A DNA stretch of 64,000 nt, from NCBI GenBank assembly GCA_963848305.1, contig CAWKDC010000001.1, forward strand, positions 22,490 to 86,489, given 5' to 3'. The translations under genes were made by a program, and so were the position numbers. The notes beneath the pieces were generated by a model. The model was not told where the DNA came from. It did no database searches and saw nothing but the letters and a program-made list of their open reading frames with translations. Below, piece by piece: positions 1-32,150 of this stretch. The DNA is from an uncultured Gammaproteobacteria bacterium (GTDB lineage Bacteria > Pseudomonadota > Gammaproteobacteria > JABCZS01). Numbering within the stretch: position 1 is the first letter of the stretch; the number at the start of each line of letters is the position of its first letter.

Positions 1-305
1 TCAGTGGCGGCGCGAACGTTGCATCGGTCCTTGACCAGTCCGGTCTGCGGATTCCCTTGTTCCCAAAAGTAGGCGACAGTAACTCGCTCCAATTCCTCCA
101 GAAACAGGTCGTCCTCCGGGGAAAGAGCTATTGGGGGAAGCGGAAGAAGCGGAAGAGGGGAAAGGAGGTGCGGCATTTCCGTCGAGGCGGATAATAGACT
201 TGGCATTCCCAACTTTAAAAGCGAACCGCCGATGCATGATTTGGAGATCCGCCTTAACAGCTCCCTTCGTGACAGAGACAGGCAAGGATCTCTCTTTTCG
301 TCCAT
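1..305 (-). CDS. partial CDS, N-terminus only (continues beyond the window start); twin-arginine-signal-like secreted protein, possibly a glycoside hydrolase
   Basis: ATG at 303-305 on the minus strand; translation MDEKRDPCLSLSRRELLRRISKSC... has an S-R-R-x-L-L Tat-like motif; this frame has higher third-position GC than the tabulated 1..285 ORF in the other frame. Confidence 0.3.
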   Translation of the reverse strand, partial: MDEKRDPCLSLSRRELLRRISKSCIGGSLLKLGMPSLLSASTEMPHLLSPLPLLPLPPIALSPEDDLFLEELERVTVAYFWEQGNPQTGLVKDRCNVRAAT

Positions 306-344
306 AAACTCCATTTTAGCCCATTTCGGGCAGTTCTACGGTTT

Positions 345-365
345 GATGTAGAGGCGGCTTTACGC
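345..365. repeat. REP-like palindromic unit (half of a REPIN-type pair), family GTAGAGGCGGCTTTA(C/G)GC
   Basis: gatgtagaggcggctttacgc plus a spacer ccatttgg closely matches the REPIN at 14721-14798. Confidence 0.5.
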
Positions 366-512
366 TACCATTTGGTCCGTCGGTTGATGGATAAACTCGC
401 CGCTACAACATCAAACGGGGAGGTCCCGCCGTCAAGCGGTTGCGGCAAATAGGAACGACGTTATCTGGCCCTGAATGCGTTTTGCCCTAAACCGTCGTAA
501 AATGGTAAGAGA

Positions 513-1506
513 ATGAAGCGCAAGACGAAGGTGATCGAATGGATCGCGCTGGTTACCGCCCTCGCGGTGGCAGTGGTTGGGGCTTATCTTATCCATCTCA
601 GGAGGAAGTCGCCGGCGATGTCCGTCCAGGGTGCGGTGATCCGGCAGGACGCCGACCTGAGGAAACAGATACCTATTGCCGATGTGGAGATCAGCACGGC
701 CAACGTATTCGGAGCCAGTACTTGCAAGTCTGATGCTTCGGGTTTCTTTTGGCTTGAATTGCCTGCGGGCATCGCACCGGGCCAATCCGTAACGCTGCTC
801 TTTCGTCATCCGGGATACCATTCATTGGAACTAAATGCCGTCGCCGGCGACAAAATCTATGTGGCTCGGATGATACCCGATTCTCGCGAGGCCAGCGATG
901 CCAAAGATCATCCCGATATAGTGGTCGCGAATGTTGACGTAAGGTATTCCATAAAATCGACGGCCGTAGCCAATGTTGGCAGCGTTGTTAAGACCTTCCA
1001 GGCGGTAAATAAGGGTAATGTGCCGTGCAACGACAGGTCGCCATGCTCGCCGGACAGAAAGTGGAAGGCCGCCATCGGCTCCATTTCCCTCGATGCGGGT
1101 GAGGGGAACGAGTTTCGAGATGCCAGGGTCTCTTGCATTGCGGGACCCTGTCCATTTCACCAAAATCCAGTCCCTCAAGCTTTCTCACGATGGCCGAACC
1201 CTTAATGTGTCGGCCTTGGACTGGTCCGATACTGCCACTTTCCTGTTGGAGGCGGAGGTCGATCATCCGATGGTCAGAAACACCGGTCGTGAATCCTATC
1301 CGGTGACCTTTGGCGAAGCCCTGAGCTTTACTTTGCCGGTGGGGGCAGAGGGGGTTGTAATTGAAGCCGAAATGAACGGCGCGCCGATTGTATTCCCCCT
1401 GGGTCCGGATCTCATCTTGAGCTGGGCCGATTGCAATGCCAGGGTGAATAGAGACCAAACCAAGGCTTATCGGTGCACGCTTAAGCCCGGCTATCGGTTT
1501 CAATGA
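513..1506 (+). CDS. hypothetical protein with an N-terminal membrane anchor; one apparent frameshift near 1150
   Basis: ORF 513..1205 (hydrophobic N-terminus IALVTALAVAVVGAYLI) continues in ORF 1018..1506 in another frame. Confidence 0.4.
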
Positions 1507-1526
1507 TCGAACTGTTCCTGGGACCC

Positions 1527-3066
1527 TCACTGGTTCAAAACCCGACCATATATCTGGACCATTTCTGTCAGGCGCTCGCCGATTTCAGTCGTTAGTTGAC
1601 CTGCTGTAAACCGCCACTGCCAGTTGCCGCTGGGCCTCGCGGGCAAGTTCATCCGCGCTTCGCTGCCCAAACCCAGGACATCCTGGAGGGGAATGATCGC
1701 CATATCGGCTACCGAAGCCAGGATCGCCCGAATCATGACCCAGTTCATTTCCCGGCCGTCCGTCCCCAGATATTTGCGCGCGAACTTTTTTTCTGCCCGG
1801 ATGTCCTCGGCAGTTCGTGTGCTGTCGCCGGCGCCACTCGAGGTCCACCAGCCGAGGGTCGTATCGTTGTCGTGCGTCCCGGTATAAACCACAAAGTTAC
1901 GGCGGTAATTGTGGGGCTTGAAATCCGGTCGCTTGTGGATCGGTGCCAAACGCAAACTGCAGAATCCCCATTCCTGGGAAACCGAAACGGTCTCGAAGCG
2001 CAGTGACCTCAGGCGTGATAACTCCCAGCGTCTCGGCCACGATGGGCAAATCGCCAAGGGTTTTCTGCACGGCTTCGAACAGCTCGGCGCCGGGGCCTTT
2101 TACCCATCTGCCGTTGATCGCAGTCTTCTCGCCCGCGGGGATCTCCCAATAGGCTTCGAATCCTCGGAAATGATCGAGGCGGATGATGTCAACCAGACGC
2201 AGCGCTGATCGAAAGCGTTCAATCCACCAGGAATAACCCGTCTCCGCCATGACGTTCCAAGCGTATAACGGGTTGCCCCACAATTGTCCGGTGGCGCTGA
2301 AATAGTCGGGCGGCACGCCGGCCTGCACGGTGGGGTTGCCATCAGGGTCTAGATGGAACAGTTCGGGGTGGGACCAGACGTCGGCGCTGTCATGGGCGAC
2401 GAAAATGGGAATGTCGCCCATCATTTGAATTCCCCGATGGTGACAATAGGCCTTCAACTCCGACCACTGTCTGAAAAACTGGTACTGCGCGTATTTCTGA
2501 ACCGCAATTTCGGCGCTCAAGCGTTTCTGCCAGGTGGCGAGTGCTTCTGGTTGGCGGGTGGCGATTTCACGCTCCCACTTGTTCCACACTCCCCCGCCAT
2601 GGGCTTCCTTCAAAGCCATGAACAAAGCGTAAGTGTCGAGCCAGAGAGCGTTCTGCCGGCAGAAACCCTCATAATCCTCACGGCGTTCAGGTGAGGCGCG
2701 AACGCGAAAATTCTCCGCTGCCCTCTTGAGGAGAGGGAATTTATATTGGATCACCCATCCGTAATCAACGCGGTGCTCCGGAAATGGAGGCAGGGCATTG
2801 GCCACGTCAGCGGACGCGAGATCCCCCGATTCAACCAGTCCCTCAAGGCTGACCAGCAACGGATTCCCCGCAAACGCCGAGAAACATTGGTAAGGCGAGT
2901 CCCCGTAACCCGTTGGACCCAAAGGAAGCACCTGCCAGATCCCCTGTCGGGAAACCGCTAAGAAATCGGCAAAGTGATAGGCCTCAGGACCTAGCTCGCC
3001 GAGTCCGAACATCCCGGGCAACGAAGTGGGGTGGAGCAGAATACCGCTGCAGCGGTGGAATTTCAT
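1527..3066 (-). CDS. malQ: 4-alpha-glucanotransferase (amylomaltase, GH77), frameshifted near 1900-2057
   Basis: N-terminus MKFHRCSGILLHPTSLPG, then DSADVW, YFSATGQLWGNPLY, LVDIIRLDHFRGF motifs; the C-terminal part (VVYTGTHDNDTTLGWW...) lies in the second ORF 1527..2057. Confidence 0.8.
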
Positions 3067-3461
3067 GAACTGATCCTCTGGTGCCTCATTAAAACCGAAA
3101 GCATCGGCGATTCCAAATGTAACGGGATCCAGCGCCCTCGCCCTAACCCATTTTGCTGCTAATTGATAGATGGTCTTATCAATCCTACTGTTGCCCATTT
3201 GAATGAGCGCAACCCGTGTAGGTTTTACACACGAAAAGCTACCTTCAGAAAAGTATTCATGCGGATATTCCCTTCGCCACGTTCTTATGCTTGCCCTGGA
3301 TTGGGTTGATAAATAAGCAGGTAGGCTCATCCCGTTGGCTTGTGTCATCTTTGGTAGGGCCTTTGCTCCTATTGGAGAAGTCCTACCGAAGTGGCAACGG
3401 GCATCAGGTCGATTTGGAAAATAAATCTTCGAAAGGAGCTCTGCAAACATCCAAACACTAT

Positions 3462-5350
3462 ATGAATCTGGCCTTGGGCGCTACGCATCTTGAAGGAAAC
3501 AACTGCCGATTTGTTCTTTGGGCCCCTCTGGCAGAACTTGTTCAAGTGCGTATTCTCGACGAACGAGACTCCGTCTCTCTGACTGGAGCCGTCTCACGGG
3601 GAAGCCACAAGGGCGGCCGATTAATTCCGCTGCAGAGAACGGACAGAGGTTATCACGAAGGGATCGTCGAGGGAATCCGGCCCGGAACACGGTACATTTA
3701 TTGCCTTGACGGCAATAAGGATCGGCCCGACCCCGCCTCGAGGTTTCAACCAGAAGGCGTCCACGGAGCTTCCCAAGTTGTTGACCCGCGAGCATTTCAA
3801 TGGAACGATGCACGCTGGCGCGGGCTCTCACTCGAAGACTACATCATCTATGAAATCCATGTGGGGACCTACAGTAGCGAGGGAACGTTCGACGCCATTA
3901 TTCCCTATCTTGATGAAATAAAAGGATTGGGAGTTACGGCGCTTGAGTTGATGCCTGTGGCCCAGTTCCCAGGCGATCGCAATTGGGGTTACGACGGAGT
4001 TTATCCCTTTGCCGTCCAGAATAGTTATGGTGGCCCTGAGGGGTTGCGGAGGCTGGTTGAAGCCTGCCACGAGCACGAACTGGCTGTCGTGCTCGATGTG
4101 GTCTACAACCACTTGGGCCCGGAAGGGAATTACCTCGGCGACTTTGGACCCTATTTCACAGACCGATACCGGTCCCTTTGGGGTCAAGCCCTAAACTTCG
4201 ACGGCCCGGAAAGTGACGAAGTCGTCCGATTTTTCATTGAGAATGCTCTCTACTGGCTACGGGATTTTCACATCGATGCTCTTCGCTTAGACGCCATTCA
4301 TGGGATTGTGGATTGCAATGCTCAACCGTTCCTCTCGTTTACTGGCCCAGGCAGTGCACGATTTCGCCAAACAATCAGGCCGCAAGATTTATCTGATCGC
4401 GGAAAGCGACCTCAATGACGTGCGCTACATCCAGCCCACTCAATCGGGCGGATACGGGTTAGATGCCCAATGGAGTGATGACTTTCACCATGCTGTACAT
4501 ACCCTGCTCACCGGGGAAAAGTCCGGCTACTACCTGGATTTTGGTGGGATCGAGGACCTGGGAAAGGCCTTCGAAGAAGGCTTCGTATATTCCGGCCAGT
4601 TCTCCGCTTATCGGCACCGGCGCCATGGCAATTCCTCTCGTCACATTCCGGCGCGACAGTTCGTGGTTTTCGCCCAGAATCACGATCAGGTTGGCAATCG
4701 GGTATTTGGCGACCGGCTAAGCACCTGGTGTCCTTCGAGGCGTCGAAACTGGCGGCGGGGATGGTGATTCTCTCCCCCTACATTCCCCTGCTGTTCATGG
4801 GGGAGGAATGGGGTGAGACGGCCCCCTTTCAGTATTTCACCAGCCACTCGGACAGCGCCCTGATCGAAGCCGTGCGGCGCGGCCGGCGAGACGAATTTGC
4901 CGACTTTCGCTGGGAGGGCGAACCTCCTGACCCTCAAGCCGAGGCAGACCTTCTTGCGATGCAAACTGGATCACACCCTAAAGCAATCTCAACCCCATCG
5001 AACGCTCCAGGAGTTCTATCAGGAACTGATCAAGCTGCGGAAATCGCTGCGGGCTTTTGCCCGGCTCAGCAAGGAGCAGATGGAAGTGCGCGTCTTCGAG
5101 AGGGAGAAAGCCTTACAGATCCGCCGTTGGTGCGAAGACGATGAAGCGCTCATTTTGGCGAATTTCAGTGCCGAGCCCAGGACCATCCTCATGGCTGGTC
5201 TCAGCGGCAATTGGCACAAGCAGTTGGATTCGGCAGATCGCCGATGGAGGGGGCCAGGGAGCGTCGTTCCTTCGAGCTTCAATTCCACCGGCAGAAGCCT
5301 GTTTAAATCTGTGCCCAAAGTCTTTTATGGTATTTCAAAGGGCGGGGTGA
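3462..5350 (+). CDS. treZ: malto-oligosyltrehalose trehalohydrolase (TreZ, GH13), with at least three apparent frameshifts
   Basis: N-terminal E-set domain [11 protein letters not shown]13 core [24 protein letters not shown]...[16 protein letters not shown]...[10 protein letters not shown]; continues in ORFs 4300.., 4728.., 4897.. in other frames; the exact 3' end is uncertain. Confidence 0.75.
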
Positions 5351-5360
5351 CCTCAAAATT

Positions 5361-7866
5361 ATGGGATACATTTGCATTCACGGACATTTTTACCAGCCGC
5401 CGCGCGAGAATCCCTGGCTCGAAGCCGTTGAGCTTCAGGACTCAGCGCGTCCCTATCACGATTGGAATGAACGGGTCGATGCTGAATGTTACACGCCCAA
5501 CGCCAGCGCTCGGATTCTGGACGAGGAAAAGCGCATTGTCAGCATTGTGAACAACTACGCCAAGATCAGCTTCAATTTCGGCCCTACTTTGCTTCCTGGA
5601 TGGAGTCAAACGATCCGGCCGTCTATCGCGCCGTTCTGCGACGCCGATGCCCAGAGCGCCAAGAACTTTTCCGGGCACGGTTCCGCCCTTGCCCAGGCGT
5701 ACAACCACATGATCATGCCCCTGGCGAACGAGCGCGACAAATACACGCAAGTATTCTGGGGGATTCGCGACTTTGAACACCGATTTGGACGGCGGCCGGA
5801 AGGGATGTGGCTCCCGGAGACCGCCGTGGACGTCGCCACTCTGGAGGTCCTGGCCGAGCAGGGCATCAAGTTCACCATTCTTGCCCCTAACCAGGCCCGC
5901 CGCGGAAGGAAGATCGGCGGTCGCAATTGGAAGGATCTCAGCAACAGTTCCGTTGACCCGACCATGGTTTACCGTCACCGCCTGCCCTCGGGGAAGAACA
6001 TTAACCTTTTCTTCTACGATGGTCCGATCTCCCGCGCCATAGCGTTTGAGGGCGTGCTGGACAACGGCCAGCAGTTTGCGCGAGCGGCTTCTGGGAGCCT
6101 TTTCCGAAGACACGCGGCCCTGGCCGGAACTCGTGCATATCGCCACGGATGGGGAGACCTACGGCCACCATCACAAATACGGTGAAATGGCCTTGGCCTA
6201 TGCCTTGGATTACATCGAGTCCAACGGCCTGGCCGAGCTCATCAATTACGGCCTGTATCAGGAACGGCATCCTCCGACCCACGAAGTCGAGATATTTGAC
6301 AACAGCTCCTGGAGTTGCGTTCACGGAGTCGAACGCTGGCGCAGCAACTGCGGCTGCAACTCCGGCGGACATGCGGGCTGGAACCAGGAGTGGCGCGCCC
6401 CGCTGCGCGCGGCTCTGGATTGGCTGCGCGACACGCTGGCCCCTCTTTACGAAGAGAAAGCCAAGCAGTTGCTGAAGGATCCGTGGTCGGCGCGCAATGA
6501 TTACATTGATGTCGTCCTTGACCGCTCCGCGGAGACCCGGGAGGCGTTTCTCGCCAAGCACGCCCTTCGGCAGCTTGATGACGGCCGAGAAAACGACCGT
6601 GTGGAAGCTGCTGGAGCTTCAGCGGCACGCCATGTTGATGTACACCAGTTGCGGTTGGTTCTTCGATGAATTGTCGGGAATCGAAACCGTCCAGGTGATT
6701 CAATACGCCGGCCGCGCCGCCCAACTGGCGGAGGAGCTTTTCGGCAATCCCCCGCAAAGCCTCTTCATCGAAAAGCTGAGCCAGGCCAAGAGCAATATTC
6801 CCGAGCATGGAGATGGCGGCCGCATCTACAAGAAGTTCGTCCAGCCCGCCTTTGTTGACTTGCGCAAGGTCGCTGCTCACTACGCCATCAGGTCTCTTTT
6901 TGAAGCGTACCAGCCGGACACCCAAATTTACTGTTACAAAGTGGAGCGCCAAGCCGACGCTTAACCTCGAAAAGGAGAACAGCCACGCGCAGAAGCTCGC
7001 GGGCGGGCTTGGCGAGGTTTACCTCGGAGGTCACCCAGGAGTCGGCCGTCCTGGGCTTCGCCGCAATTGAATGTGGCGATTACAACCCCACGGGCGGTGT
7101 CCTGAAGGCCACGAACCCCGAGGCTTATGAGGCCGTAAGCGCTGCACTGAAGGAGCCCTTTCTGCGGGGAGACCTGAAGGAGGCATGCCGGCTCCTGGAA
7201 CAAAATCTCGATGGCGAGCCTTATGCGCTCGCGGTGATCTTTCGTGACGAGCAAGAAAGAATCCTCAAACGGATCATCGAGACAGAGTGGGCGGACGCCG
7301 ATGCGGCTTTTGACAGCCTTTACCCCCACCTGCTGTCCACGATGCGAACGCTCGCGAGGGTGGGAGGATCCTTGATGATTCCCCGAGCTTTCTCTGCCGC
7401 TGCCGAATTTGTTTTGAATACCCGGCTCCGGCGCGCGTTGGGGAGCGACCAGTTGGATTTTGAGGGCATCCGGAGTCTCATCGGCGATGCCGAGGGTGCC
7501 AATGTGGCGCTCGACGTGCCGACCCTGGAATACACGCTCCGGACAAAGCTCGAACGGATGGCGGAGAGCTTACGAGCCGACCCTACCAATGTTGAGCTTC
7601 TCCAGGGCTTGATTCCGCCGTGGGCATGGCTCGTTCGCTGCCGCTGGAGGTGAACCTCGCGAAGATTCAGAACATTTGTTACGAGTTGCTGCAAACCACC
7701 TACAATGACTTTCAGGTAAAAGGGCGAAGAAGGAGGCAAAAACGCCAGCGCATGGATCGAGCATTTTCGTGCTCTGGCTGAAAAACTCTCCCTGCGTGTC
7801 GCGGAGGAGCCCCGTTCTTTAGAGCCTGACCTGACCGGGGCTAAAGGACAGCAGGTGCAGGGCTGA
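5361..7866 (+). CDS. glycoside hydrolase family 57 protein (about 830 aa, DUF3536-type C-terminus), with several apparent frameshifts
   Basis: N-terminus CIHGHFYQPPRENPWLE, ATDGETYGHHHKYGE; the product is pieced together from ORFs 5361.., 6046.., 6497.., 7009.. and a tail to 7866. Confidence 0.7.
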
Positions 7867-7893
7867 AGCCCGGCGCGGTCTTGGTAGGAGGCG

Positions 7894-10770
7894 ATGGCCA
7901 CACTGCGGATTCCTCTGGCGACGTACCGGCTCCAGTTCAACGCGCAGTTTCGCTTCGAGCACGCGCGGGCGCTGGTGGATTACCTTGCACCAGCTTGGGG
8001 TGACGGATATCTACTCTTCGCCTCTGCTGCAAGCGCGGCGCGGAAGTCTGCACGGCTACGACGTCACCGATCCCTCCCACATCAATAGTGAAATTGGGAG
8101 CGAGCAGGACCTCGAGGCCCTGTCGGCGAAGCTCCAGGAACATCAAATGGGCCTCCTCCTGGACATCGTCCCGAACCACATGGCCGCCGGAAGCGAGAAT
8201 CCCTGGTGGATGGATGTCCTGGAAGACGGCCCCGGCTCTGCCTACGCTTCGTTTTTTGATATCGACTGGCACCCTCCCCGCATGATGCTCCAGAACAAAG
8301 TTCTTCTGCCGATCCTCCGCCACCCTTACGCCCAAGCGCTTGAGAACCAGGAACTCAAACTGGTTTTCGACCAGGGTGGCTTTTTCATCCAGTGTTTCGA
8401 TGCCAAGCTGCCCGTCGCGCCCAAAACCTACCTTCTGGTCTTGCAGCATCGGCTGGGCGAGTTGCAGCACAAGCTGGGCCTCCGACCACCCGGCGTTTCG
8501 GGAATTGGGAGGCATCTTCGCCGCCGCGACAAACCTTCCCGAGCGCGTTGCTCTTTCCACCGAAATGGCGGGGGAAAGACGCATGCAAAGGGAGGCCCTG
8601 AAGGAAAGGCTCTGGAAGCTGTATCAAGACTCGTCCGAAGTGCGGACCTTCGTCGATGAGAACGTGCGCATCTTCAATGGCCGGAAGAGGGACCCGGCCA
8701 GCTTTATGTTGCTTGACCGTTTGCTGGCCGAGCAGGCTTATGTGCTCTCATACTGGCTCTCCGCCAATGACGAAATCAACTACCGGCGATTTTTTACCAT
8801 CAATAATTTAGTGGGAGTCCGCGTGGAAGATCCCCTGGTGTTTGAAGCCACGCACGCCGTGATCCTGCGCCTTATCGAAAGAGGATTGGTGACGGGATTG
8901 AGGATCGACCACGTGGACGGCCTCCGAGACCCTCACGGTTATCTGCGCAGACTCCAGGAGCGCGTCGGAGGCAGTGCCGGAGACGATTCTCATCCGCCGT
9001 TTTATGTCCTCGTGGAAAAGATTCTCGCCTATGGCGAAAAGCTACCTCGCGAATGGCCGATCTGCGGGGCGACCGGCTATGCCTCCCTCAATGCTCTCAA
9101 TGGGCTTTTCGTCGACCTCCGACGGGTGCAAGAAACTCCACCAGATCTACGAATCGTTTATCGGCGCCACGATCCGGTATGAGGATCTGGTGTATGAAAA
9201 AAAGAAGGAGGTGATGGAAAGCCTCCTCGCCGTGGAGATGCGTTCACTGGGCCATTACCTGGCAATCCTGGCGGAACAGGACCGGTATGCGCGCGACTCT
9301 GCCCGCGGTGACCTTGCCAACGCTCTCACCGAGACCACCGCTTGCTTTCCCGTTTACCGGAGCTATATTCGGAGCTTCTCGGTGAGCGCGGAGGAACGCC
9401 GATACATTGAGAAGGCACTCGAGTGCGCTCGACGGCGGAATCCCGCGTCTAGCTTCGCAATGCTTTGATTTTGTCGCGACGTCCTTTTGTTGCGGGAAAG
9501 AGGCCATGTACAGCCCGAGCAGCGGGAAGCCAGACTGGCTTTTATTATGCGCTGGCAGCAGTTCACCGGTCCGATCATGGCCAAAGGGCTGGAGGATTCT
9601 GCCCTTTACGTTTACTACCCCCTGAGTTCGCTGAACGAGGTCGGCGGAGCTCCCGATTCCTCGGGAGTGCCGGCCGCCGAATTTCATGTATTCTGCCGCA
9701 ACCGGCAGAAGCACGGCCACACTCTGAATGCCACCTCCACCCACGACACCAAGCGCGCCGAAGATGTGCGCGCACGAATTAACGTGCTTTCCGAAGTTCC
9801 CGAAGAGTGGGATACGGCCCTCCAAAGCTGGACACGACGCAACATGGCCGAAGAAGATCCCGGTCGAACGGGCAAAAGGTCCCCGATCCTAACGAGGAAG
9901 TACCTCGTTTACCAGACCATGCTGGGGGCTTGGCCGCTGGACAAAGGGCGACATTTCCGCCTTCCGAAAACGGCTCCAGGATTACATGGTGAAAGCGGTG
10001 CGGGAGGCGAATGGTCCACACAGATTGGAGCCGCCCCAACGTCCGCCACGAGCAGGCGCTGATCCACTTCATTAAATCCATCACTCAGCCGTCGGAAGAC
10101 AACAAGTTTTTGCCCGACTTCCTTCGCCTGCAGCGGCAAGTTGCCTACTGCGGGGCGCTCAATTCCCTGGCCCAGCTTTTGCTCAAAATCACCGATTCCA
10201 GGGGTTCCGGATTTTTACCAAGGCTCTGAGCTTTGGGACTTCCGCCTGGTTGATCCTGATAACCGGGGTCCGGTGGACTTCGAAAAGCGGGTGCGCCTGC
10301 TGGCCGAGCTCCAGCGAGCAGGAGGAACAACGCGGCCGTTTGGACCTCATCAGGGACCTCCTTGACCACTGGCAGGACGGGCGCATCAAACTCTTTGTGA
10401 CCTCGACAGCCCTCAACTTTCGCCGGGATCACGCCCAAGCTGTTCCTGAAGGGCGATTACCAGCCATTGCACGGCGACGGGGCCCAAAAAAGAGAAGGTC
10501 TTTGCGTTTATGAGGCGTACCGAGGACGCCTGGGCGGTCACCGCCGTGCCAAGATTCGTCACGAAGCTGGCTTCCCGCCGGGCAGCCTCCCACGGGAGAA
10601 GGCGTATGGTCAGCCGGTACGGTGCTTCTACCTAAGGGGGCGCCGACGGATTGGGTCAATGTGCTGACCAGGCGAAAGCCTGAAGGTTCGCACTTCAAAG
10701 CAGGGAGCGCCCCTTGCCGCTGGCGGAGGTATTTGGTAAGTTTCCTGTGGCACTGCTTACAAGCGGGTAG
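7894..10770 (+). CDS. treY: malto-oligosyltrehalose synthase (TreY), with many apparent frameshifts
   Basis: Start [24 protein letters not shown] (TreY hallmark), [45 protein letters not shown]-terminus ...FPVALLTSG; the ORF fragments sit in at least seven frames. Confidence 0.75.
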
Positions 10771-10894
10771 TGCAGCGCGGCATTAGGCCGCAACGCTGAG
10801 TCGTGGCATGGCCATCCCGGCCATGGCGTTAACACGGGAAAGATGCCCGTGCCACGTCTGGTGCTCTTGCACCGCTGCGCTGCGTGGCCCAACT

Positions 10895-12561
10895 ATGACC
10901 AACCCCGAACCGAGCACCTACAAGCCTCCGGACGATCCGCTTTGGTACAAGGATGCGGTCTTCTATGAGGTCCATGTGCGCGCCTTTTGCGACAGCGATG
11001 GCGACGGGACGGGAGACTTCCGCGGGTTCGCGCAAAAGCTGGATTATCTGGAGGACTTAGGCGTCAACACCATTTGGCTTCTTCCCTTTTACCCCTCGCC
11101 GCTCAAGGACGACGGGTACGATATCTCCGACTATACGAACGTTCACCCTTCCTATGGCACCCTGGACGACTTCCAATTGGTTTTGGACCAGGCGCATCGG
11201 CGGGGAATGAGAGTCCTCACTGAACTGGTCATGAATCACACCTCGGACCAGCATCCGTGGTTTCAGGAGGCAAGGCAATCCAAGAACAACCCGCGCCGCG
11301 ATTGGTACGTGTGGAGCGACACTCCCGATCCCTACAGGAAGGCCCGTATCATCTTTATCGACACCGAACTCTCCAACTGGGCCTGGGACCCGGTTTCCAA
11401 GTCGTATTACTGGCACCGCTTCTTCAGCCACCAGCCGGATCTTGAATTATGACAATCCCGCCGTCCGGGAAGAGATGTGGAACCTCATGAAGTTCTGGCT
11501 GGATAAGGGCGTCGACGGATTCCGTTTGGACGCCGTTCCCTATCTGGTCGAGCGGGAAAACACCAACTGCGAAAACCTGCCCGAGACCCACCAGGTTCTT
11601 AAGGACCTTCGAAGCCGGCTGGCCCAGAATTACCCCAACCGGTTTCTGCTGGCCGAAGCCAACCAGTGGCCACAGGACGCGATTGCCTATTTCGGCACCG
11701 GCGACGAGTGCCACATGGCCTTTCACTTTCCCCTCATGCCGCGGATGTTCATGGCCATCCGGCTCGAAGACCGCAAGCCGATCATTGATATCATGCAGAG
11801 CACCCCGGCCATTCCCGAGTCATGCCAGTGGGGCTTGTTTCTACGCAACCACGATGAGCTGACGCTGGAAATGGTGACCGACGACGAGCGGGATTATTTG
11901 TATGACGAATACGCCAAGGACAAGAGCGCCCGGCTCAACCTCGGAATCCGGCGGCGCCTGGCGCCTTTGCTCGAAAACGACCGCCGACGCATCGAACTGA
12001 TGAACGGCATGTTGATGTCGCTGCCGGGAACACCCATCATCTATTACGGAGATGAAATCGGGATGGGAGACAACATTTACCTGGGGGACCGCAACGGTGT
12101 CCGCACGCCCATGCAATGGAATGCCGGCTGGAATGCCGGGTTTTCCGCTGCCGACCCGGAACAGCTCTATTTCCCGCTGCTGTCAAATCCGCTGTACGGC
12201 TATCAAAGCGATCAACGTGGACGCCCAGAAAAGGTCCCCCCACTCTCTGCTGTCCTGGATGAAACAGATCATTCGCGTGCGGAAATCCACCCAGGCGTTC
12301 GGGCGGGGGACGCTGGAATTTCTCGACTCGCCGAATCACCGGGTTCTGGCTTACGTCCGGGAAATGGGAAAGGATAAAATATTGGTCGTCAATAATCTAT
12401 CGAATTCCGCGCAGGCGGCAGAACTCGATCTTCGCCGGTTCAAGGGGGCAATCCCCATCGAGATGTTCGGCGGCAATCCCTTTCCTCGGGTGGGCGATCC
12501 TCCCTATCTTTTGACCTTAGGGCCGTATCAATTTTTTTGGTTCCGGCTGCGAAGGTTTTAG
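10895..12561 (+). CDS. treS: trehalose synthase / maltose alpha-D-glucosyltransferase (TreS, GH13), with two apparent frameshifts
   Basis: [92 protein letters not shown]. Confidence 0.8.
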
Positions 12562-28157: not shown

Positions 28158-28398
28158 ACCCGCCTTCTCCGAAAAAAAATTCCGGCAGAAATTGGACTAC
28201 ATGCACAAGAACCCGGTGACGCGCGGCCTGGTGATCTCTCCCGGTGATTGGCCGTGGTCAAGCTGGAGGTTCTACTATTCACAGGATGCATCGATTCTCC
28301 GCATGGACCGGATGCGTTGAGTCCAACTTTCGAGAAGTCCCTTCGGGAGATCGCAGACTTCAAAGAGCCGGAGTCTGCCAGCCCCCGTGTCTTGCAGC
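28158..28398 (+). mobile_element. partial copy (about 240 bp, 3' end only) of the IS200/RAYT element found at 30.8-31.47 kb
   Basis: About 90% identical to 31227-31466, including the A8 tract, the DWPWSSWRFYY coding segment and the subterminal hairpin gcagact...agtctgc. Confidence 0.75.
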
Positions 28399-28540: not shown

Positions 28541-29074
28541 TCATTTCGTGATCGTCACGTCACTAACGGACTTGAGGATCAGTCGAGTCTGATACAACGT
28601 ACTGGGCGTGAACCCATAGCCTTTCCTGACGACGGTCTTGCCAGTCTTATCCGTCACTGTCAATTTGTCTGGACCGTCGAACCGTCCGACGAGCGTCGCG
28701 AATACTCGGCCTTCTGGAGGCTTAGAGGACGGGCCGATCTGCAGTCCCCACCCGTACTTCGAAAGCGCTTCGTCCAACTTCTTGAGATTCTCATCTTTCA
28801 ATAGACTGAATTCAGGGCGGTCCGAGTCTCGCACGAGGTCCGGGGAATAGAGCGCGACGGCCGCCCCTTTGTGGTCGCACTCCGCCAGGAGGACAGAAAT
28901 CTCGAATGCCGCGTAGACTTGCGTGCGAATGCGAACCATTTTCCCGCTAAAGGCCGCCGGGTTCCGAACGAGCTCGCACACCGTGGTGTCAATGGGGTTC
29001 ATAGCCGCCCTGTCGGGCAACGCACAAATTCCGAGCGCCACGATCGCCAATAGAATCGTTCTCAATGTGGACAT
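28541..29074 (-). CDS. signal-peptide protein immediately downstream of the RHS toxin domain; candidate cognate immunity protein
   Basis: MSTLRTILLAIVALGICALPDRAA signal; 177 aa; an 18-bp gap to the RHS stop on the same strand. Confidence 0.45.
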   Translation of the reverse strand: MSTLRTILLAIVALGICALPDRAAMNPIDTTVCELVRNPAAFSGKMVRIRTQVYAAFEISVLLAECDHKGAAVALYSPDLVRDSDRPEFSLLKDENLKKLDEALSKYGWGLQIGPSSKPPEGRVFATLVGRFDGPDKLTVTDKTGKTVVRKGYGFTPSTLYQTRLILKSVSDVTITK

Positions 29075-29091: not shown

Positions 29092-30879
29092 CTACTGCTG
29101 CTCCCAGGGGTCATGATAGGGCAATGGGTCAACAAAGATCTTGCCGGGATTCAGACGAGGGTACGTACCCATGATCAGATTCGATGTGCCAGCATCGTTG
29201 AAACCTCGGCCACTCGTAAAGATAGTGTAGCCGCCAGCCGAAAGACCGGACAGGCCAAGCCCTTGTGCCACCCAAGCGGACGTTTCATACCCGCGATACT
29301 CGAACGAGAAGTCCGGCAGCGGGGCCGTCGAACTCCTTGGATCGAGATTGTCCATCACGTGGGTTCCCTCGTGGCCAGCATTTATCGCCATGATGGTTTC
29401 GTTTGGATTCTTGCTCATGTCGAACGTAACTGCTGAGCCGACCGTTGCAGCAGCACCTAGCCCGCGCAGGTCGCCGGTCGTGACGGTCACTCCGTTATCA
29501 TCGCCTGCCTTGCCATAGGTCTTCAGAACTGCATCGAGCCTCGCACGCTCCTCGCTGCCCTTTCCGAAGCTGTTTCTCGCCGCTTTTATGTCGTCCAACG
29601 AATCCTTAAACTCTTTCTTGAAAGCCTTGAAATCAGCGTTACACTGTTTGTCAGATTTCTCGCAAGGGTTCTTGAAATCGTAGAGCCCGGTGGGATCGAC
29701 GCGAGTGGTGGGATTATTCCGGACATAAGCATACATATTCCAGGTCTGGGGGTCGCTGGGGTCGGCAGCGGCCAGGCCTGCCGGGTCGGGGGTGAGCCAG
29801 CGGCCGGCCAGGTCGTCATAGACCCGGTGCGGGGCCAATTTAAAATCGCCATCCCCCTCCTGAAACGCCGCCCACTCCCACTCCCATAAATTACCGGCCG
29901 TTTGCCACAACTGACCCCAGGGGTACCACAGTAAGTCCTCGGTCCAGTTCCCCAGATGGTTGGTGTCCTGGGTTGCGGAACCGAGAAAGTTGGGGTGCTG
30001 AAGATAGGTCTCGTTGTTGTCACGGGAATATGCTGCGATTTTCCGCCCCCCCGCTCGTACCTGGTCCACCCACAAGCTGCTGCCGTCGGCGTTCCCCAGC
30101 CAATCACCATTGGGAGCGAACAATGCGGACATGTTGGTCCACGGCACGGCATAGTAGACCTCTTGGCCGAAGGCATTATAAACTGCGCTGGAATTGGTTT
30201 CCCGCCCCTCGCCATCCCAGGAGAAGCTATTCGTGCCGTCACTGGTCAGATTCCCCGCGGCGTCGTAGCTGAAGCCGTCAATGCGATTCGGGTAATTGTT
30301 GTAAGTCAATACCGGGCAAGGGCCGTTCGTAGACCCGTTCATCAAGCAGGTCATGTTGCCGTAGGCGTCATAGCCAAAGGCGAGGTTATACGTGCTGTTG
30401 CCGCTCGCCTGCGCGCAAGCCAGGCGATTCACGCCGTCATAGACATACAAGGCCGAGTGGCTCATCGTGCTGTTCACCGCGTCCGTGAAAGTATAACCAA
30501 TCACGTCGCCGTTGTTGCCGCTCCCGGACGCGGACACGGGGCAGCCGGGCGGCGTACTGCCGCCGGGCAAAGAGTAATTATACCCCAGTGTATAGTACGC
30601 TCCGGGGTTGCCGCTGGTGCCCAACTGAATCTGGGTCGGCTGCATCCGGTTATTGTAGGAGTAGGTTTCCTGGCTGTTCGTGCACCCGGAACCCGCGCAG
30701 CCGTTGGTGAGACCGCTTAGCGCCCCCCAGGGAGTGTAGGCCGGCTGGCGCTCAGACACCCGTTCTTTGGTGTCTGCGATTCCCGAAGGGACGTTCTCTT
30801 CCGGCCCCGCACCGTCGAGAGTATACTCTTCTGCGCCATGCCCTTCTACCACCGCGTTTACAGTCCCGGTGAACTGCAA
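29092..30879 (-). CDS. RHS/YD-repeat protein C-terminal fragment with a variable C-terminal toxin domain carrying an HExxH motif (N-terminus lost at the IS junction)
   Basis: YD repeats (YVYDGVNRL, FGYDAYGNMT, FSYDAAGNLTSDG); RHS core end RWLTPDPAGL...NMYAYVRNNPTTRVDPTGL; about 210-aa tail with AINAGHEGTHVMD. Confidence 0.75.
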   Translation of the reverse strand: MQFTGTVNAVVEGHGAEEYTLDGAGPEENVPSGIADTKERVSERQPAYTPWGALSGLTNGCAGSGCTNSQETYSYNNRMQPTQIQLGTSGNPGAYYTLGYNYSLPGGSTPPGCPVSASGSGNNGDVIGYTFTDAVNSTMSHSALYVYDGVNRLACAQASGNSTYNLAFGYDAYGNMTCLMNGSTNGPCPVLTYNNYPNRIDGFSYDAAGNLTSDGTNSFSWDGEGRETNSSAVYNAFGQEVYYAVPWTNMSALFAPNGDWLGNADGSSLWVDQVRAGGRKIAAYSRDNNETYLQHPNFLGSATQDTNHLGNWTEDLLWYPWGQLWQTAGNLWEWEWAAFQEGDGDFKLAPHRVYDDLAGRWLTPDPAGLAAADPSDPQTWNMYAYVRNNPTTRVDPTGLYDFKNPCEKSDKQCNADFKAFKKEFKDSLDDIKAARNSFGKGSEERARLDAVLKTYGKAGDDNGVTVTTGDLRGLGAAATVGSAVTFDMSKNPNETIMAINAGHEGTHVMDNLDPRSSTAPLPDFSFEYRGYETSAWVAQGLGLSGLSAGGYTIFTSGRGFNDAGTSNLIMGTYPRLNPGKIFVDPLPYHDPWEQQ

Positions 30880-31466
30880 TTCATCACCACCAGCACCTAT
30901 CGCCGCACGCCCCTTTTCCTCTCGGATCGCTTTCGGCGCTGCTTTGTCCAGAGGCTGGAGGAGGTGCGGCAGGAATTACATTTCCTGCTCGTCGGCTGGG
31001 TTCTGATGCCCGAGCATTTTCATATGCTGATCAAGCCCGAGCCCGCCGAAACCACTCCCCTGATTATGAAGGGGCTCAAGGAGGAATCGGCCAAGCGCAT
31101 CATCAGAACACTTCGGGAAAACCTTCGGTATCCTTGGTGCCGGAAGACGCTCGCCAGGCTGCGGCTGCCCTCCACGGTTCACGATGAATCACACTACCGC
31201 CTCTGGCAGCGCCGCTTTTACCCCTTCAATGTCTTCTCCGAAAAAAAATTCCAGCAGAAATTGGACTACATGCACAACAACCCGGTGACGCGCGGGCTGG
31301 TGAGTTCCCCCGGCGACTGGCCGTGGTCAAGCTGGAGGTTCTACTATTTGCAGGATGCGTCAATTCTCCGCATGGATCGGATGCGCTGAGCTCAACTTAC
31401 CAGAAGTCCCTTCGGGAGATCGCAGACTCCAAAGAGCCGAAGTCTGCGCCAGCCCCGTGTCTGGAA
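30800..31466 (+). mobile_element. IS200/IS605-like element carrying a REP-associated tyrosine transposase (left boundary approximate)
   Basis: RAYT gene plus a subterminal hairpin cgcagactccaaagagccgaagtctgcg; the 3' 240 bp is duplicated at 28158-28398. Confidence 0.65.
30838..31389 (+). CDS. REP-associated tyrosine transposase (RAYT, IS200-like Y1 HuH transposase)
   Basis: HuH motif MPEHFHMLIKP; YRLWQRRFY; DYMHNNPVTRGLVSSPGDWPWSSWRFY, which matches the RAYT signature. Confidence 0.8.
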   Translation: MPFYHRVYSPGELQFITTSTYRRTPLFLSDRFRRCFVQRLEEVRQELHFLLVGWVLMPEHFHMLIKPEPAETTPLIMKGLKEESAKRIIRTLRENLRYPWCRKTLARLRLPSTVHDESHYRLWQRRFYPFNVFSEKKFQQKLDYMHNNPVTRGLVSSPGDWPWSSWRFYYLQDASILRMDRMR

Positions 31467-31728
31467 ATGGTTGAGTGATCTTTACAATCGTGCCTGAGAG
31501 AGCCGGCGCGGCGATCTCCGCGGCAATCTTCCCGGCTGCCAGCCTACCCATCAAGTCCTGACCGAGGCTCACGAACAACGAAAATGGAATAAGGAATTTG
31601 ACCGAGGCGCTAAGCCAAAGCCAGTAGCGGACTTGGGCGCGATTCTTGCGGAAGGCGAGCGTCAGCAGCCCCACCACAACCGCAAACACCGTTGATTGCC
31701 ACAAATGGTTCGTCACCTCAGCGATCAT
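31360..31728 (-). pseudogene. blaR1/mecR1-family sensor (peptidase M56) N-terminal remnant, truncated by the IS
   Basis: MIAEVTNHLWQSTVFAVVVGLLTLAFRKNRAQVRYWLWLSASVKFLIPF is a typical BlaR1 N-terminus; the reading frame runs into IS-derived sequence after about 87 aa. Confidence 0.6.
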
Positions 31729-32125
31729 TTCGATTCATGCTTCCTTTCTGCTTGTGTTCGAGATCAAGCTTCTTGATGGTCTTCTCCAACTCTCGAACGT
31801 CATCAAGGGTGAGCTTCCCCGCTTCGGCCAACTGCGCCATCATGGGTTGAGCCTGCCCTCCGAAGAAACTCAGAATGTCGTCAAGGAGCCGGCGGCGTGC
31901 CACGTCCCGGGGCACCGTCGGTTCGAAAATATGAGCGTTGCCGATCTTCCGGACTCGGCGCACTGCCTTCTTGCCCTCCAGCCGGTACACCGTGGTCTGG
32001 ATGGTGGTGTATGCCGGCCGAGGCTCCGGAAACGACTCCTGGATCTCCCGAATGGCTGCCTTTCCATGGGTCCATAGGACTTCGAGGATTTGGAGTTCGA
32101 GCTTGGTCAATTTTGGTCGGGCCAT
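31718..32125 (-). CDS. BlaI/MecI/CopY-family transcriptional repressor
   Basis: MARPKLTKLELQILEVLWTHGKAAIREIQE...YTTIQTTVYRLEGKKAV winged-helix N-terminus plus a C-terminal dimerisation helix; the internal start at 32125 is preferred (GAAGG RBS). Confidence 0.7.
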   Translation of the reverse strand: MARPKLTKLELQILEVLWTHGKAAIREIQESFPEPRPAYTTIQTTVYRLEGKKAVRRVRKIGNAHIFEPTVPRDVARRRLLDDILSFFGGQAQPMMAQLAEAGKLTLDDVRELEKTIKKLDLEHKQKGSMNRNDR

Positions 32126-32150
32126 GTGCCTTCTACTATTCTCCATCTAA

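Follow-up and report, generated by a model that had tools for sequence, protein, structure and literature searches.

An orphan RHS cassette with a predicted zincin-type toxin tail and a candidate exported immunity gene between RAYT-derived sequences

The 64-kb stretch of contig CAWKDC010000001.1 that was analysed (hereafter the window) carries on its reverse strand a 5′-truncated RHS gene, the open reading frame (ORF) of which ends in a C-terminal tail with an HExxH motif. Directly downstream on the same strand is a gene for a 177-residue protein with a signal peptide, and sequence derived from a RAYT (REP-associated tyrosine, or IS200-like Y1) transposase element flanks the two genes on either side (Table 1). 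Taken together, sequence comparisons, structural models and analogy with characterised systems make it probable that this is a displaced orphan RHS cassette in a Terriglobia-like genome of the Acidobacteriota, representing a family of exported zincin toxins that would act in the periplasm and be blocked by an exported inhibitor. Related loci and proteins from other assemblies are cited below by number (L and P, respectively).

The truncated RHS gene

The ORF is assigned to the RHS proteins because its core domain (amino acids (aa) 319-399) matches the curated model TIGR03696, Rhs_assc_core (E 6.5e-12, 45.8 bits, cut-off 32.5), and because BLASTP places aa 48-399 on the repeat regions of full-length RHS proteins 1477-1708 aa long (lowest E-value 3e-64), given that the profile hidden Markov models (HMMs) for the repeats themselves fall short of their thresholds (PF05593, E 0.005 and 17.6 bits vs 22; TIGR01643, E 0.043 and 14.3 bits vs 15.8). 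A first-pass annotation, made by reading the sequence alone, had listed both YD repeats and the RHS core terminus; the core stands, whereas the repeats are recovered by alignment to relatives and stay below threshold in the HMM searches. The translation shows GRWLTPDPAG and RVDPTGL, the two motifs that mark the aspartyl autoprotease of RHS proteins, and through the family profile the core lines up with the core ends of TccC3 and YenC2.

In BLASTP, the stretch homologous to the full-length relatives sets in at residue 48-51 of the ORF and at residue ~900-1050 of the relatives; therefore some 900-1050 N-terminal residues are absent from the ORF, in agreement with the figure of about 1000 given in the first-pass annotation. 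RHS sequence proper starts at AYTPWG (~30741). The 46 codons before it are the antisense of the left terminal repeat of the RAYT element and of the first 42 nucleotides (nt) of the RAYT coding sequence (CDS), and the two divergent genes overlap by these 42 nt, so that the start of the ORF does lie inside the element as first noted. A complete RHS protein has an N-terminal export or delivery domain, a plug and a full shell, in all ~1400 aa or more, of which the ORF retains only the last ~350 residues of shell and core, and no further RHS sequence was found within the 64-kb window. Judged from its sequence, the 595-aa ORF is an RHS fragment and not a functional RHS protein. For annotation this means that the ORF should not be entered as a full gene, its first 46 codons being transposon antisense. 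What is present is a truncated rhs gene with its core, an intact tail and an intact candidate immunity gene, which is the composition of an orphan rhs-CT/immunity module, and the layout is identical in sister assemblies. The initial description of the locus as an orphan RHS C-terminal fragment is thus borne out by the truncation at the RAYT element, the lack of other RHS sequence in the window and the recurrence of the arrangement in at least three assemblies.

Table 1. Features of the cassette and its surroundings in window coordinates, and conservation of tail residues among 89 aligned tails (representatives of 50%-identity clusters)
Feature	Coordinates	Strand	Basis or remark
5′-truncated RHS gene	29092-30879	-	595 codons, TTG start
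Element-derived 5′ extension, ORF aa 1-46, non-RHS	30742..30879	-	inverted repeat I1, junction alignment, repeat extent
YD-repeat shell remnant, aa 47-318; last quarter to third of full RHS cocoon	29926..30741	-	BLASTP
RHS-associated core domain, ORF aa 319-399	29683..29925	-	TIGR03696 and both Asp-protease autocleavage motifs
Putative toxin tail, 196 aa, ORF aa 400-595, after RVDPTGL, YDF onward	29095..29682	-	predicted zincin-fold metallopeptidase domain
Conserved Cys pair, aa 406 and 413 (tail C7, C14), putative disulfide	29641..29664	-	
HEGTH motif, two predicted zinc-binding His and catalytic Glu, tail helix 95-113	29359..29373	-	
Glu527 (tail E128), candidate third zinc ligand, F-x-x-E-Y-R-G/A-Y, helix 124-141	29299..29301	-	
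Candidate immunity gene, 177 aa	28541..29074	-	17 nt past toxin stop, own Shine-Dalgarno sequence
Signal peptide, aa 1-24	29003-29074	-	
Mature domain, aa 25-177, predicted OB-fold, conserved C33 and C66	28544-29002	-	
RAYT (IS200-like Y1 transposase) element	30742..31458	+	CDS 30838-31389
Remnant of second RAYT element, last ~155 nt of CDS and right terminal repeat	28164..28378	+	direct repeat D1, tblastn
BlaR1/M56-type sensor gene stub, ~90 aa N-terminus	31459..31728	-	PF05569 weak, E 0.098, aa 11-56
BlaI repressor gene, intact	31718-32146	-	PF03965 Penicillinase_R, E 1.8e-24
Tail residue C7			73/89
Tail residue C14			74/89
Tail residue H104			88/89
Tail residue E105			89/89
Tail residue G106			88/89
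Tail residue H108			89/89
Tail residue D111 (+3 after second His)			78/89
Tail residue E128			87/89
Tail residue Y132			72/89

The C-terminal tail as a predicted zincin

The tail was first estimated at about 210 residues; it is shorter, and the HExxH motif reported for it is present, HEGTH occupying aa 503-507 within AINAGHEGTHVMD. Loss of the motif in homologues had been chosen beforehand as the finding that would speak against a metallopeptidase-like domain, and the residues H104, E105, G106 and H108 are each retained in 88 or 89 of the 89 aligned tails (Table 1). A further view is given by alignment A2 (41 sequences), in which E105, G106, H108 and E128 never vary and conservation exceeds 90% for the first His and for the Cys pair. 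E128 is the acidic residue of FEYRGYE already suspected of being a third ligand; it lies exactly 20 residues past the second His of HEGTH, a spacing that we take to be of the thermolysin type (gluzincin). The signature of the tail family is HEGxHxxD followed by E-x-R-G/A-Y.

No match to the tail was found among Pfam, NCBIfam and PDB sequences or profiles, the only hits falling in RHS-core columns that P0001 had brought into alignment A1. When the 41 family members were compared with the Pfam families Tox-MPTase2-5, Peptidase_M91/HopH1 and DUF4157/PVC-MPTase, none reached a gathering score, the nearest being one member each with Peptidase_M91 (E 0.05) and Tox-MPTase3 (E 0.15). A word-indexed search of 5.8 billion clusters returned four close relatives of the tail. 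The exhaustive search of 1.84 billion representatives was made with a profile (A1) that includes 87 columns of the RHS core; its 4867 matches are inflated by proteins that match the core only, and the proteins returned were filtered again with an HMM of the tail alone, which recovers 127-133 of the proteins collected. The tail family comprises more than 100 sequence clusters, and in 102 of 103 members the tail forms the extreme C-terminus after DPxGL. Its full-length carriers are RHS proteins of 1388-2281 aa, some with TIG or PKD domains and several beginning with Sec-type signal peptides; no PAAR or VgrG domain was matched in them. A pattern scan of species-representative genomes found 22 loci, all in metagenome-assembled genomes (MAGs) of Acidobacteriota, to which the family appears to be restricted on present sequences; the scan used a narrower alignment (A4) that is biased to closer relatives, which makes the taxonomic range a lower bound.

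The AlphaFold2 model of the tail, built with alignment A2 (pLDDT 92.5, pTM 0.89), consists of a helical hairpin, a three-stranded sheet, the helix bearing HExxH (residues 95-113) and the helix bearing E128 (residues 124-141), so that HExxH and E128 stand on consecutive helices and the mixed sheet, active-site helix and ligand helix of a zincin are all in place. The zincin fold can be predicted with confidence from this model, and the first-pass proposal of a zincin-like toxin tail is upheld by it and by the nearly invariable C-terminal position. Its best structural neighbour is the M35 family, followed by Wss1, botulinum light chains, peptidyl-Lys endopeptidase, lugdulysin, astacin, ADAMs, M1 aminopeptidases, GtgA and lethal factor; two HExxH enzymes that are not peptidases, ChlH and SjiH, also rank high. 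Judged by the conserved residues and the model, the tail probably binds zinc and acts as a peptidase, with E128 as the candidate third ligand. The alternative is that the tail is zincin-like without being a peptidase, performing other metal chemistry, as HExxH oxygenase domains do, or hydrolysing peptidoglycan or lipid-linked precursors. The failure to match any peptidase family HMM is in its favour, but HExxH, a Glu on the next helix and an invariant general-base Glu make up the standard catalytic set of gluzincins, and RHS proteins are already well known to carry peptidase toxins of the zincin type (PMC3482391; Rhs-M91), which makes this alternative very unlikely. Also considered was a releasing or processing peptidase in place of a toxin; this was rejected, the tail being the sole domain past the RHS autocleavage site and having its own linked inhibitor-like partner.

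The M35 aspzincins (deuterolysin, peptidyl-Lys metalloendopeptidase) resemble the tail in being compact single-domain zincins of similar size. Their third ligand is an Asp ~10 residues past HExxH, within a GTxDxxYG motif; this motif is absent from the tail, which has its conserved Glu at +20 instead and is not an M35 member on this evidence. The identity of M35 proteins to the tail is only 10-13%, and they are fungal secreted proteases that are not part of toxin cassettes.

Zincin families of polymorphic toxins have been catalogued as Tox-MPTase1-5, Tox-HopH1/Peptidase_M91, Tox-ALF and PVC-metallopeptidase (Zhang et al. 2012, PMC3482391), and the M91 domain of the Rhs-M91 effector of Salmonella Dublin has antibacterial activity (PMC13556075). 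The tail is like these families in being a small HExxH zincin domain at the extreme C-terminus of RHS-repeat proteins, and differs from them in its signature, HEGxHxxD with E-x-R-G/A-Y as opposed to HExxHxxQ-E (PVC) or HEELH (MPTase5). For Tox-MPTase1, the only published signature is 'HExxH' and the phyletic range does not include Acidobacteria (PMC3482391). By sequence, then, the tail would represent an uncatalogued zincin-type family of polymorphic toxins, set apart from Tox-MPTase1 by the published description only. RHS proteins with zincin toxin tips being an established class, what the window adds is an uncatalogued family of more than 100 clusters; the general understanding of RHS systems is unchanged by this cassette.

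The downstream gene as a candidate immunity gene

The gene downstream of the tail was correctly recognised in the first-pass annotation as coding for a 177-aa protein with a signal peptide, except that the spacer is 17 nt long and not 18; it holds the Shine-Dalgarno sequence AAGGGAG. At the N-terminus of the protein, a positive residue precedes 13 hydrophobic ones, and most homologues have a canonical cleavage site, SAAA↓EP. No family in Pfam or NCBIfam matches the protein. Its close homologues number 15, rising to 53 clusters once distant seeds are added, all of them unnamed proteins of ~170-190 aa, a few of which are fused to TonB_C; no member of the family is named or housekeeping anywhere. 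The mature domain is modelled as an OB-fold (pLDDT 83, pTM 0.80), with the periplasmic OB proteins YgiW and DUF3299 among its structural neighbours.

A small signal-peptide-like ORF lies -16 to +14 nt downstream of the tail in nearly all of the 22 loci, and it is of two kinds: either a distant member of the 177-aa family or a signal peptide joined to TonB_C (PF03544, above gathering score in 4 of 5 downstream proteins tested). The 177-aa family is found directly downstream of tails only 35-45% identical, and the distant downstream proteins, though 20-24% identical, align with it end to end with C33 and C66 nearly invariant. Two kinds of fusion were encountered: P0201 (L019) joins the OB type and the TonB_C type in one protein, and P0024 is a single called protein in which the tail is fused to an OB-type domain. 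Elsewhere the gene has outlasted the toxin. At L001-3, L010 and L011 the candidate immunity gene is kept beside a toxin remnant of only ~13 codons, and a Terriglobia MAG (L004/L013) has, in this order, an RHS gene ending in another tail, a RAYT gene, a 146-aa fragment of a tail of the window type and a 176-aa gene; the orphans at L004 and L034 adjoin other RHS genes. Between the window and the copies at L012 and L013, the ratio of nonsynonymous to synonymous substitution (dN/dS) comes to ~0.17 in the tail and to 0.16-0.22 in the gene that follows it.

The 177-aa protein is most likely the antidote of the tail toxin, as far as sequence and gene order can tell; the position that had first suggested an immunity role is occupied by the same family next to divergent tails and next to bare toxin remnants. 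The "hypothetical protein" annotation of this gene merits replacement by a provisional immunity label. Two family members have no toxin nearby, one of them inside an atp operon, and this would fit an accessory factor (a chaperone for export or folding, or a helper in receptor binding or delivery) or a periplasmic protein unrelated to the toxin that merely travels along with it. Such a role is quite improbable: the slot right after the toxin is tight and conserved while the tails are 35-45% and the partners 20-24% identical, an unrelated exported TonB_C family fills the same slot elsewhere, as is typical of immunity swapping and not of a conserved helper, orphan copies keep only 3′ remnants of the toxin, multi-cassette arrays exist, and PA0261, described below, provides a precedent.

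Genes for a signal peptide and TonB_C were located directly downstream of the tail at L014 (6641-7156), L015 (6606-7070), L019 (6617-7420), L022 (6612-7064), L032 (1664-2257) and others. A Bryobacteraceae MAG (JAHDVK010000034; L016/L034, locus 1-11600) has a tandem array of at least five RHS-CT fragments of 374-641 aa. Each fragment of the array is followed by a small exported or lipoprotein gene, and the three with the window tail family are partnered by the TonB_C type, the OB type and a 193-aa third type. At L036 (5071-6742 and 6981-11914), a tail-immunity cassette lies beside conjugation genes (for a NikA-like protein, a TrwB/TraG coupling protein and a TrwC relaxase) and a Gp49/HTH toxin-antitoxin pair, which suggests that it is carried on a mobile element. 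At L009 (ENA ERZ25039501 contig_76059), segments 1-2235 and 4150-2247 form a near-perfect palindrome, the second arm being 96% identical with 30 gaps; it was not accepted as a real inverted duplication and is probably an artefact of long-read assembly.

The site of action is inferred to be the periplasm because both partner families have signal peptides, Cys pairs are conserved in toxin and partner alike, the carriers are Sec-exported, and VgrG2b sets a precedent. The C-terminal metallopeptidase of VgrG2b is toxic in the periplasm only and is neutralised by PA0261, which depends on a signal peptide and DsbA (Wood et al. 2019, PMC6899460); the pair belongs to the Tpe1-Tpi1 family, known from Pseudomonas aeruginosa and Acinetobacter baylyi (PMC6899460). 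By analogy, VgrG2b-Cter/PA0261 is the closest characterised counterpart of the window pair. The two systems share an HExxH toxin of zincin fold and an immunity gene directly downstream, and the immunity proteins of the VgrG2b family have a signal peptide, lipobox or transmembrane anchor with cysteines that are partly conserved. They differ in the carrier, which is the VgrG spike of a type VI secretion system there and a Sec-exported RHS shell here, and in the partner, which is predicted here to be an OB-fold or TonB_C protein; there is no detectable sequence similarity between the pairs, and the activity is demonstrated there and inferred here. Secreted immunity proteins accompany surface-acting toxins (Zhang et al., PMC3482391), and in the 2012 table the Tox-MPTase families have neither an immunity protein entered for them nor Acidobacteria within their ranges (PMC3482391). 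Unlike those families, the present one comes with candidate immunity partners of two unrelated exported kinds, OB-fold and TonB_C, which point to periplasmic action and offer ready toxin-inhibitor pairs for experiments. What appears to distinguish the family, on sequence evidence, is its apparent restriction to Acidobacteriota, its Sec-exported RHS carriers and its two unrelated families of exported immunity candidates. These carriers suggest that soil Acidobacteria use RHS toxins exported by the Sec system rather than by a type VI secretion system, a little-studied area.

Alternatively, the toxin might act in the bacterial cytoplasm or on eukaryotic cells, with the exported inhibitor guarding the periplasm of the producer only while the RHS protein is in transit. 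Sec-exported relatives would expose that periplasm in any case, most characterised RHS toxins are known to act in the cytoplasm, and the structural neighbours of the tail include the eukaryote-directed botulinum neurotoxin light chains, GtgA and lethal factor. A toxin enclosed in its shell should be inert during export, however, as is generally understood from the structures of Tc and Rhs proteins; the conserved cysteines of the toxin fit an oxidising compartment; and immunity genes without a toxin imply defence against an incoming toxin, which is workable only if the toxin is met in the periplasm. A cytoplasmic or eukaryotic target is accordingly held to be highly improbable.

With the periplasm as the preferred site of action, the following mechanism is proposed. 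A full-length RHS protein of ~1400-2300 aa would be exported by means of its Sec signal peptide, its YD-repeat shell enclosing the ~196-aa C-terminal domain, and the RHS aspartyl autoprotease would free this domain after DPxGL. The freed domain is predicted to be a zincin zinc metallopeptidase with HExxH and the Glu 20 residues on as ligands (gluzincin-type), and its action would take place beyond the cytoplasmic membrane, within the envelope or periplasm of the cells attacked. The producer and its kin would be shielded by the product of the small gene 17 nt downstream, an exported protein with a predicted OB-fold and a putative disulfide, which probably works by binding to the protease and covering its cleft, and in other branches of the toxin family an exported TonB_C-domain protein would serve in the same slot. 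The N-domain of TIMP and serralysin inhibitors such as APRin are small, disulfide-containing, exported, beta-rich proteins with beta-barrel or OB-type folds that block the cleft of a zinc metalloprotease stoichiometrically. The likeness of the 177-aa protein to them is one of analogy only and an inhibitory mechanism is conjecture; neither the TIMP N-domain nor APRin appears among the structural neighbours of the mature domain. Immunity proteins of the TonB_C type may be decoys of the real target of the toxin, which would then be TonB-like periplasmic domains, but this is the weaker reading; the literature searched contained no case of a TonB_C domain as immunity candidate against a toxin of the metalloprotease type.

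Several observations weigh against the proposed exported toxin and inhibitor. Foldseek found no significant match to the tail model in the PDB (best E 0.08), though the weak matches are likewise gluzincins. The cleavage region of the window copy of the 177-aa protein, PDRAA↓MN, is less canonical than that of its homologues. Two members of the downstream family are without RHS neighbour or toxin remnant, P0181 between uvrA and a helicase gene and P0186 inside an ATP-synthase operon between AtpZ and AtpI, so that the earlier concern that the gene might be a housekeeping protein is answered by the lack of any named or housekeeping member and yet keeps these two cases. Finally, a scan for promoters and terminators found nothing on the cassette strand, and hence no promoter-like site upstream of the truncated ORF. 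The gene for P0186 (JGI 3300075153, a 15.7-kb contig) spans 6744-7256 and overlaps its upstream gene by 4 nt; the other member without RHS or toxin neighbour lies at L035 (7001-7645).

The window copy has neither a signal peptide nor ~1000 residues of the shell, the RAYT element standing in their place. With these parts gone and no more than the end of the shell left, the fragment would be undeliverable alone. Most likely, the immunity gene is the selected part of the cassette, and the toxin module is either silent or kept in reserve, open to reactivation should it recombine with a full-length rhs gene elsewhere. Orphan rhs-CT/immunity modules are reportedly known from enterobacteria (E. coli, Salmonella and Dickeya). 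They consist of a 5′-truncated rhs gene with part of the core, a distinct tail and an immunity gene, often in arrays and often beside the IS-like element H-rpt, and a module that recombines with the main rhs gene can become active again. Among the relatives of the window cassette, too, there are arrays (L016/L034). In contrast to the enterobacterial orphans, the window cassette stands alone among housekeeping genes and not behind a main rhs gene, its flanking element is a RAYT/IS200-like Y1 transposase, and the full-length proteins of its family are Sec-exported and not linked to a type VI secretion system.

RAYT elements and neighbouring genes

The CDS of the RAYT element matches NF047646 (E 6.4e-35, 120 bits, cut-off 80) and PF01797 (E 3e-9), and is enclosed by terminal inverted repeats of at least 48 nt at ~30742-30797 and 31402-31458, each with two small hairpins. 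By its sequence, the full element has what defines a RAYT, namely a RAYT-type Y1 HUH transposase between inverted REP-like hairpin repeats. The remnant of the second element, located just past the 177-aa gene, is a 215-nt direct repeat of 31233-31447 with 91% identity. An exact 23-mer is common to the two sites and occurs nowhere else in the window, and they are the sole RAYT-like sequences within the 64 kb; therefore, with a full copy on one side and a remnant on the other, the cassette is bracketed by RAYT-derived sequence. A domesticated RAYT is present in single copy with a dispersed REPIN population, whereas here there are two copies, one of them truncated, within 3 kb, and the terminal repeat is confined to the element ends within the 64 kb. 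In the one window examined, the element acts more like an insertion sequence than like a domesticated RAYT.

The same truncated arrangement is found with ~99% identity in at least three other independent assemblies (L037-L039), and because of this recurrence the layout of the cassette is considered a stable feature of the population. In these assemblies the terminal repeat of the element supplies an in-frame ATG (ATG-CGC-CAG-CCG), which is the called start of a 553-aa hybrid ORF and would lie at ~30751-30753 in window numbering (8322 in L037). In the window (30742-30760) a deletion of 1 nt abolishes it, and the frame is open further upstream as a result, to GTG 30759 or TTG 30879. Of 35 substitutions between the window and L037 over a 3.8-kb region, 34 are inside the RAYT element and the remaining one is at 31545; the RAYT CDS differs at 31 of 552 nt and 8 of 183 residues (window 30815-31399, L037 7684-8260), and the cassette and BlaI-side flanks are identical. 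The mosaic divergence, with few residue changes and identical flanks, indicates that the RAYT sequence was replaced when it recombined with a paralogue located elsewhere in the genome, one that is diverged but functional. The complete lack of substitutions in the toxin ORF between strains was considered as a sign of selection and rejected, since the flanks are equally identical and recency accounts for it.

Y1/RAYT genes or remnants are no further than 3 kb from the cassette both in the window and at 7 of ~22 related loci: L013 (1605-2156), L015 (4027-5049), L019 (8861-9513), L021 (5124-5711 and 8145-8732), L028 (4668-4847 and 9811-10392), L029 (5330-5788) and L033 (5371-5892). The RAYT is often exactly at the truncation point of the RHS or tail frame, and the cassettes of the window and L021 are bracketed by two direct RAYT copies. 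The enrichment of RAYT genes beside cassettes is only suggestive. IS-like H-rpt elements next to enterobacterial rhs orphans form a known parallel. Conceivably, RAYT/IS200-like Y1 elements have an active part in capturing RHS toxin-immunity cassettes of Acidobacteriota, truncating them and moving them about as RAYT-cassette-RAYT units in which translation starts are provided by the ends of the element. The proximity, the location at truncation points, the bracketing, the exchange of the RAYT between strains and the element-supplied ATG are all consistent with such capture, but we regard it as doubtful. If true, polymorphic-toxin modules would be shuffled by a route that had not been recognised before; no published link between RAYTs and rhs cassettes was found in the literature searched, where one paper that mentions both treats them separately.

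The neighbours of the cassette are ordinary chromosomal genes, encoding LeuA, a SPOR-domain protein, an Ig-repeat protein and an Fe-S/NrfD oxidoreductase. On the side of the RAYT element opposite the cassette, the insertion has disrupted a regulator-sensor pair of the BlaI/BlaR1 type: the BlaR1-like frame is interrupted after ~90 codons by the right end of the RAYT, and the rest of the gene is absent from the window.

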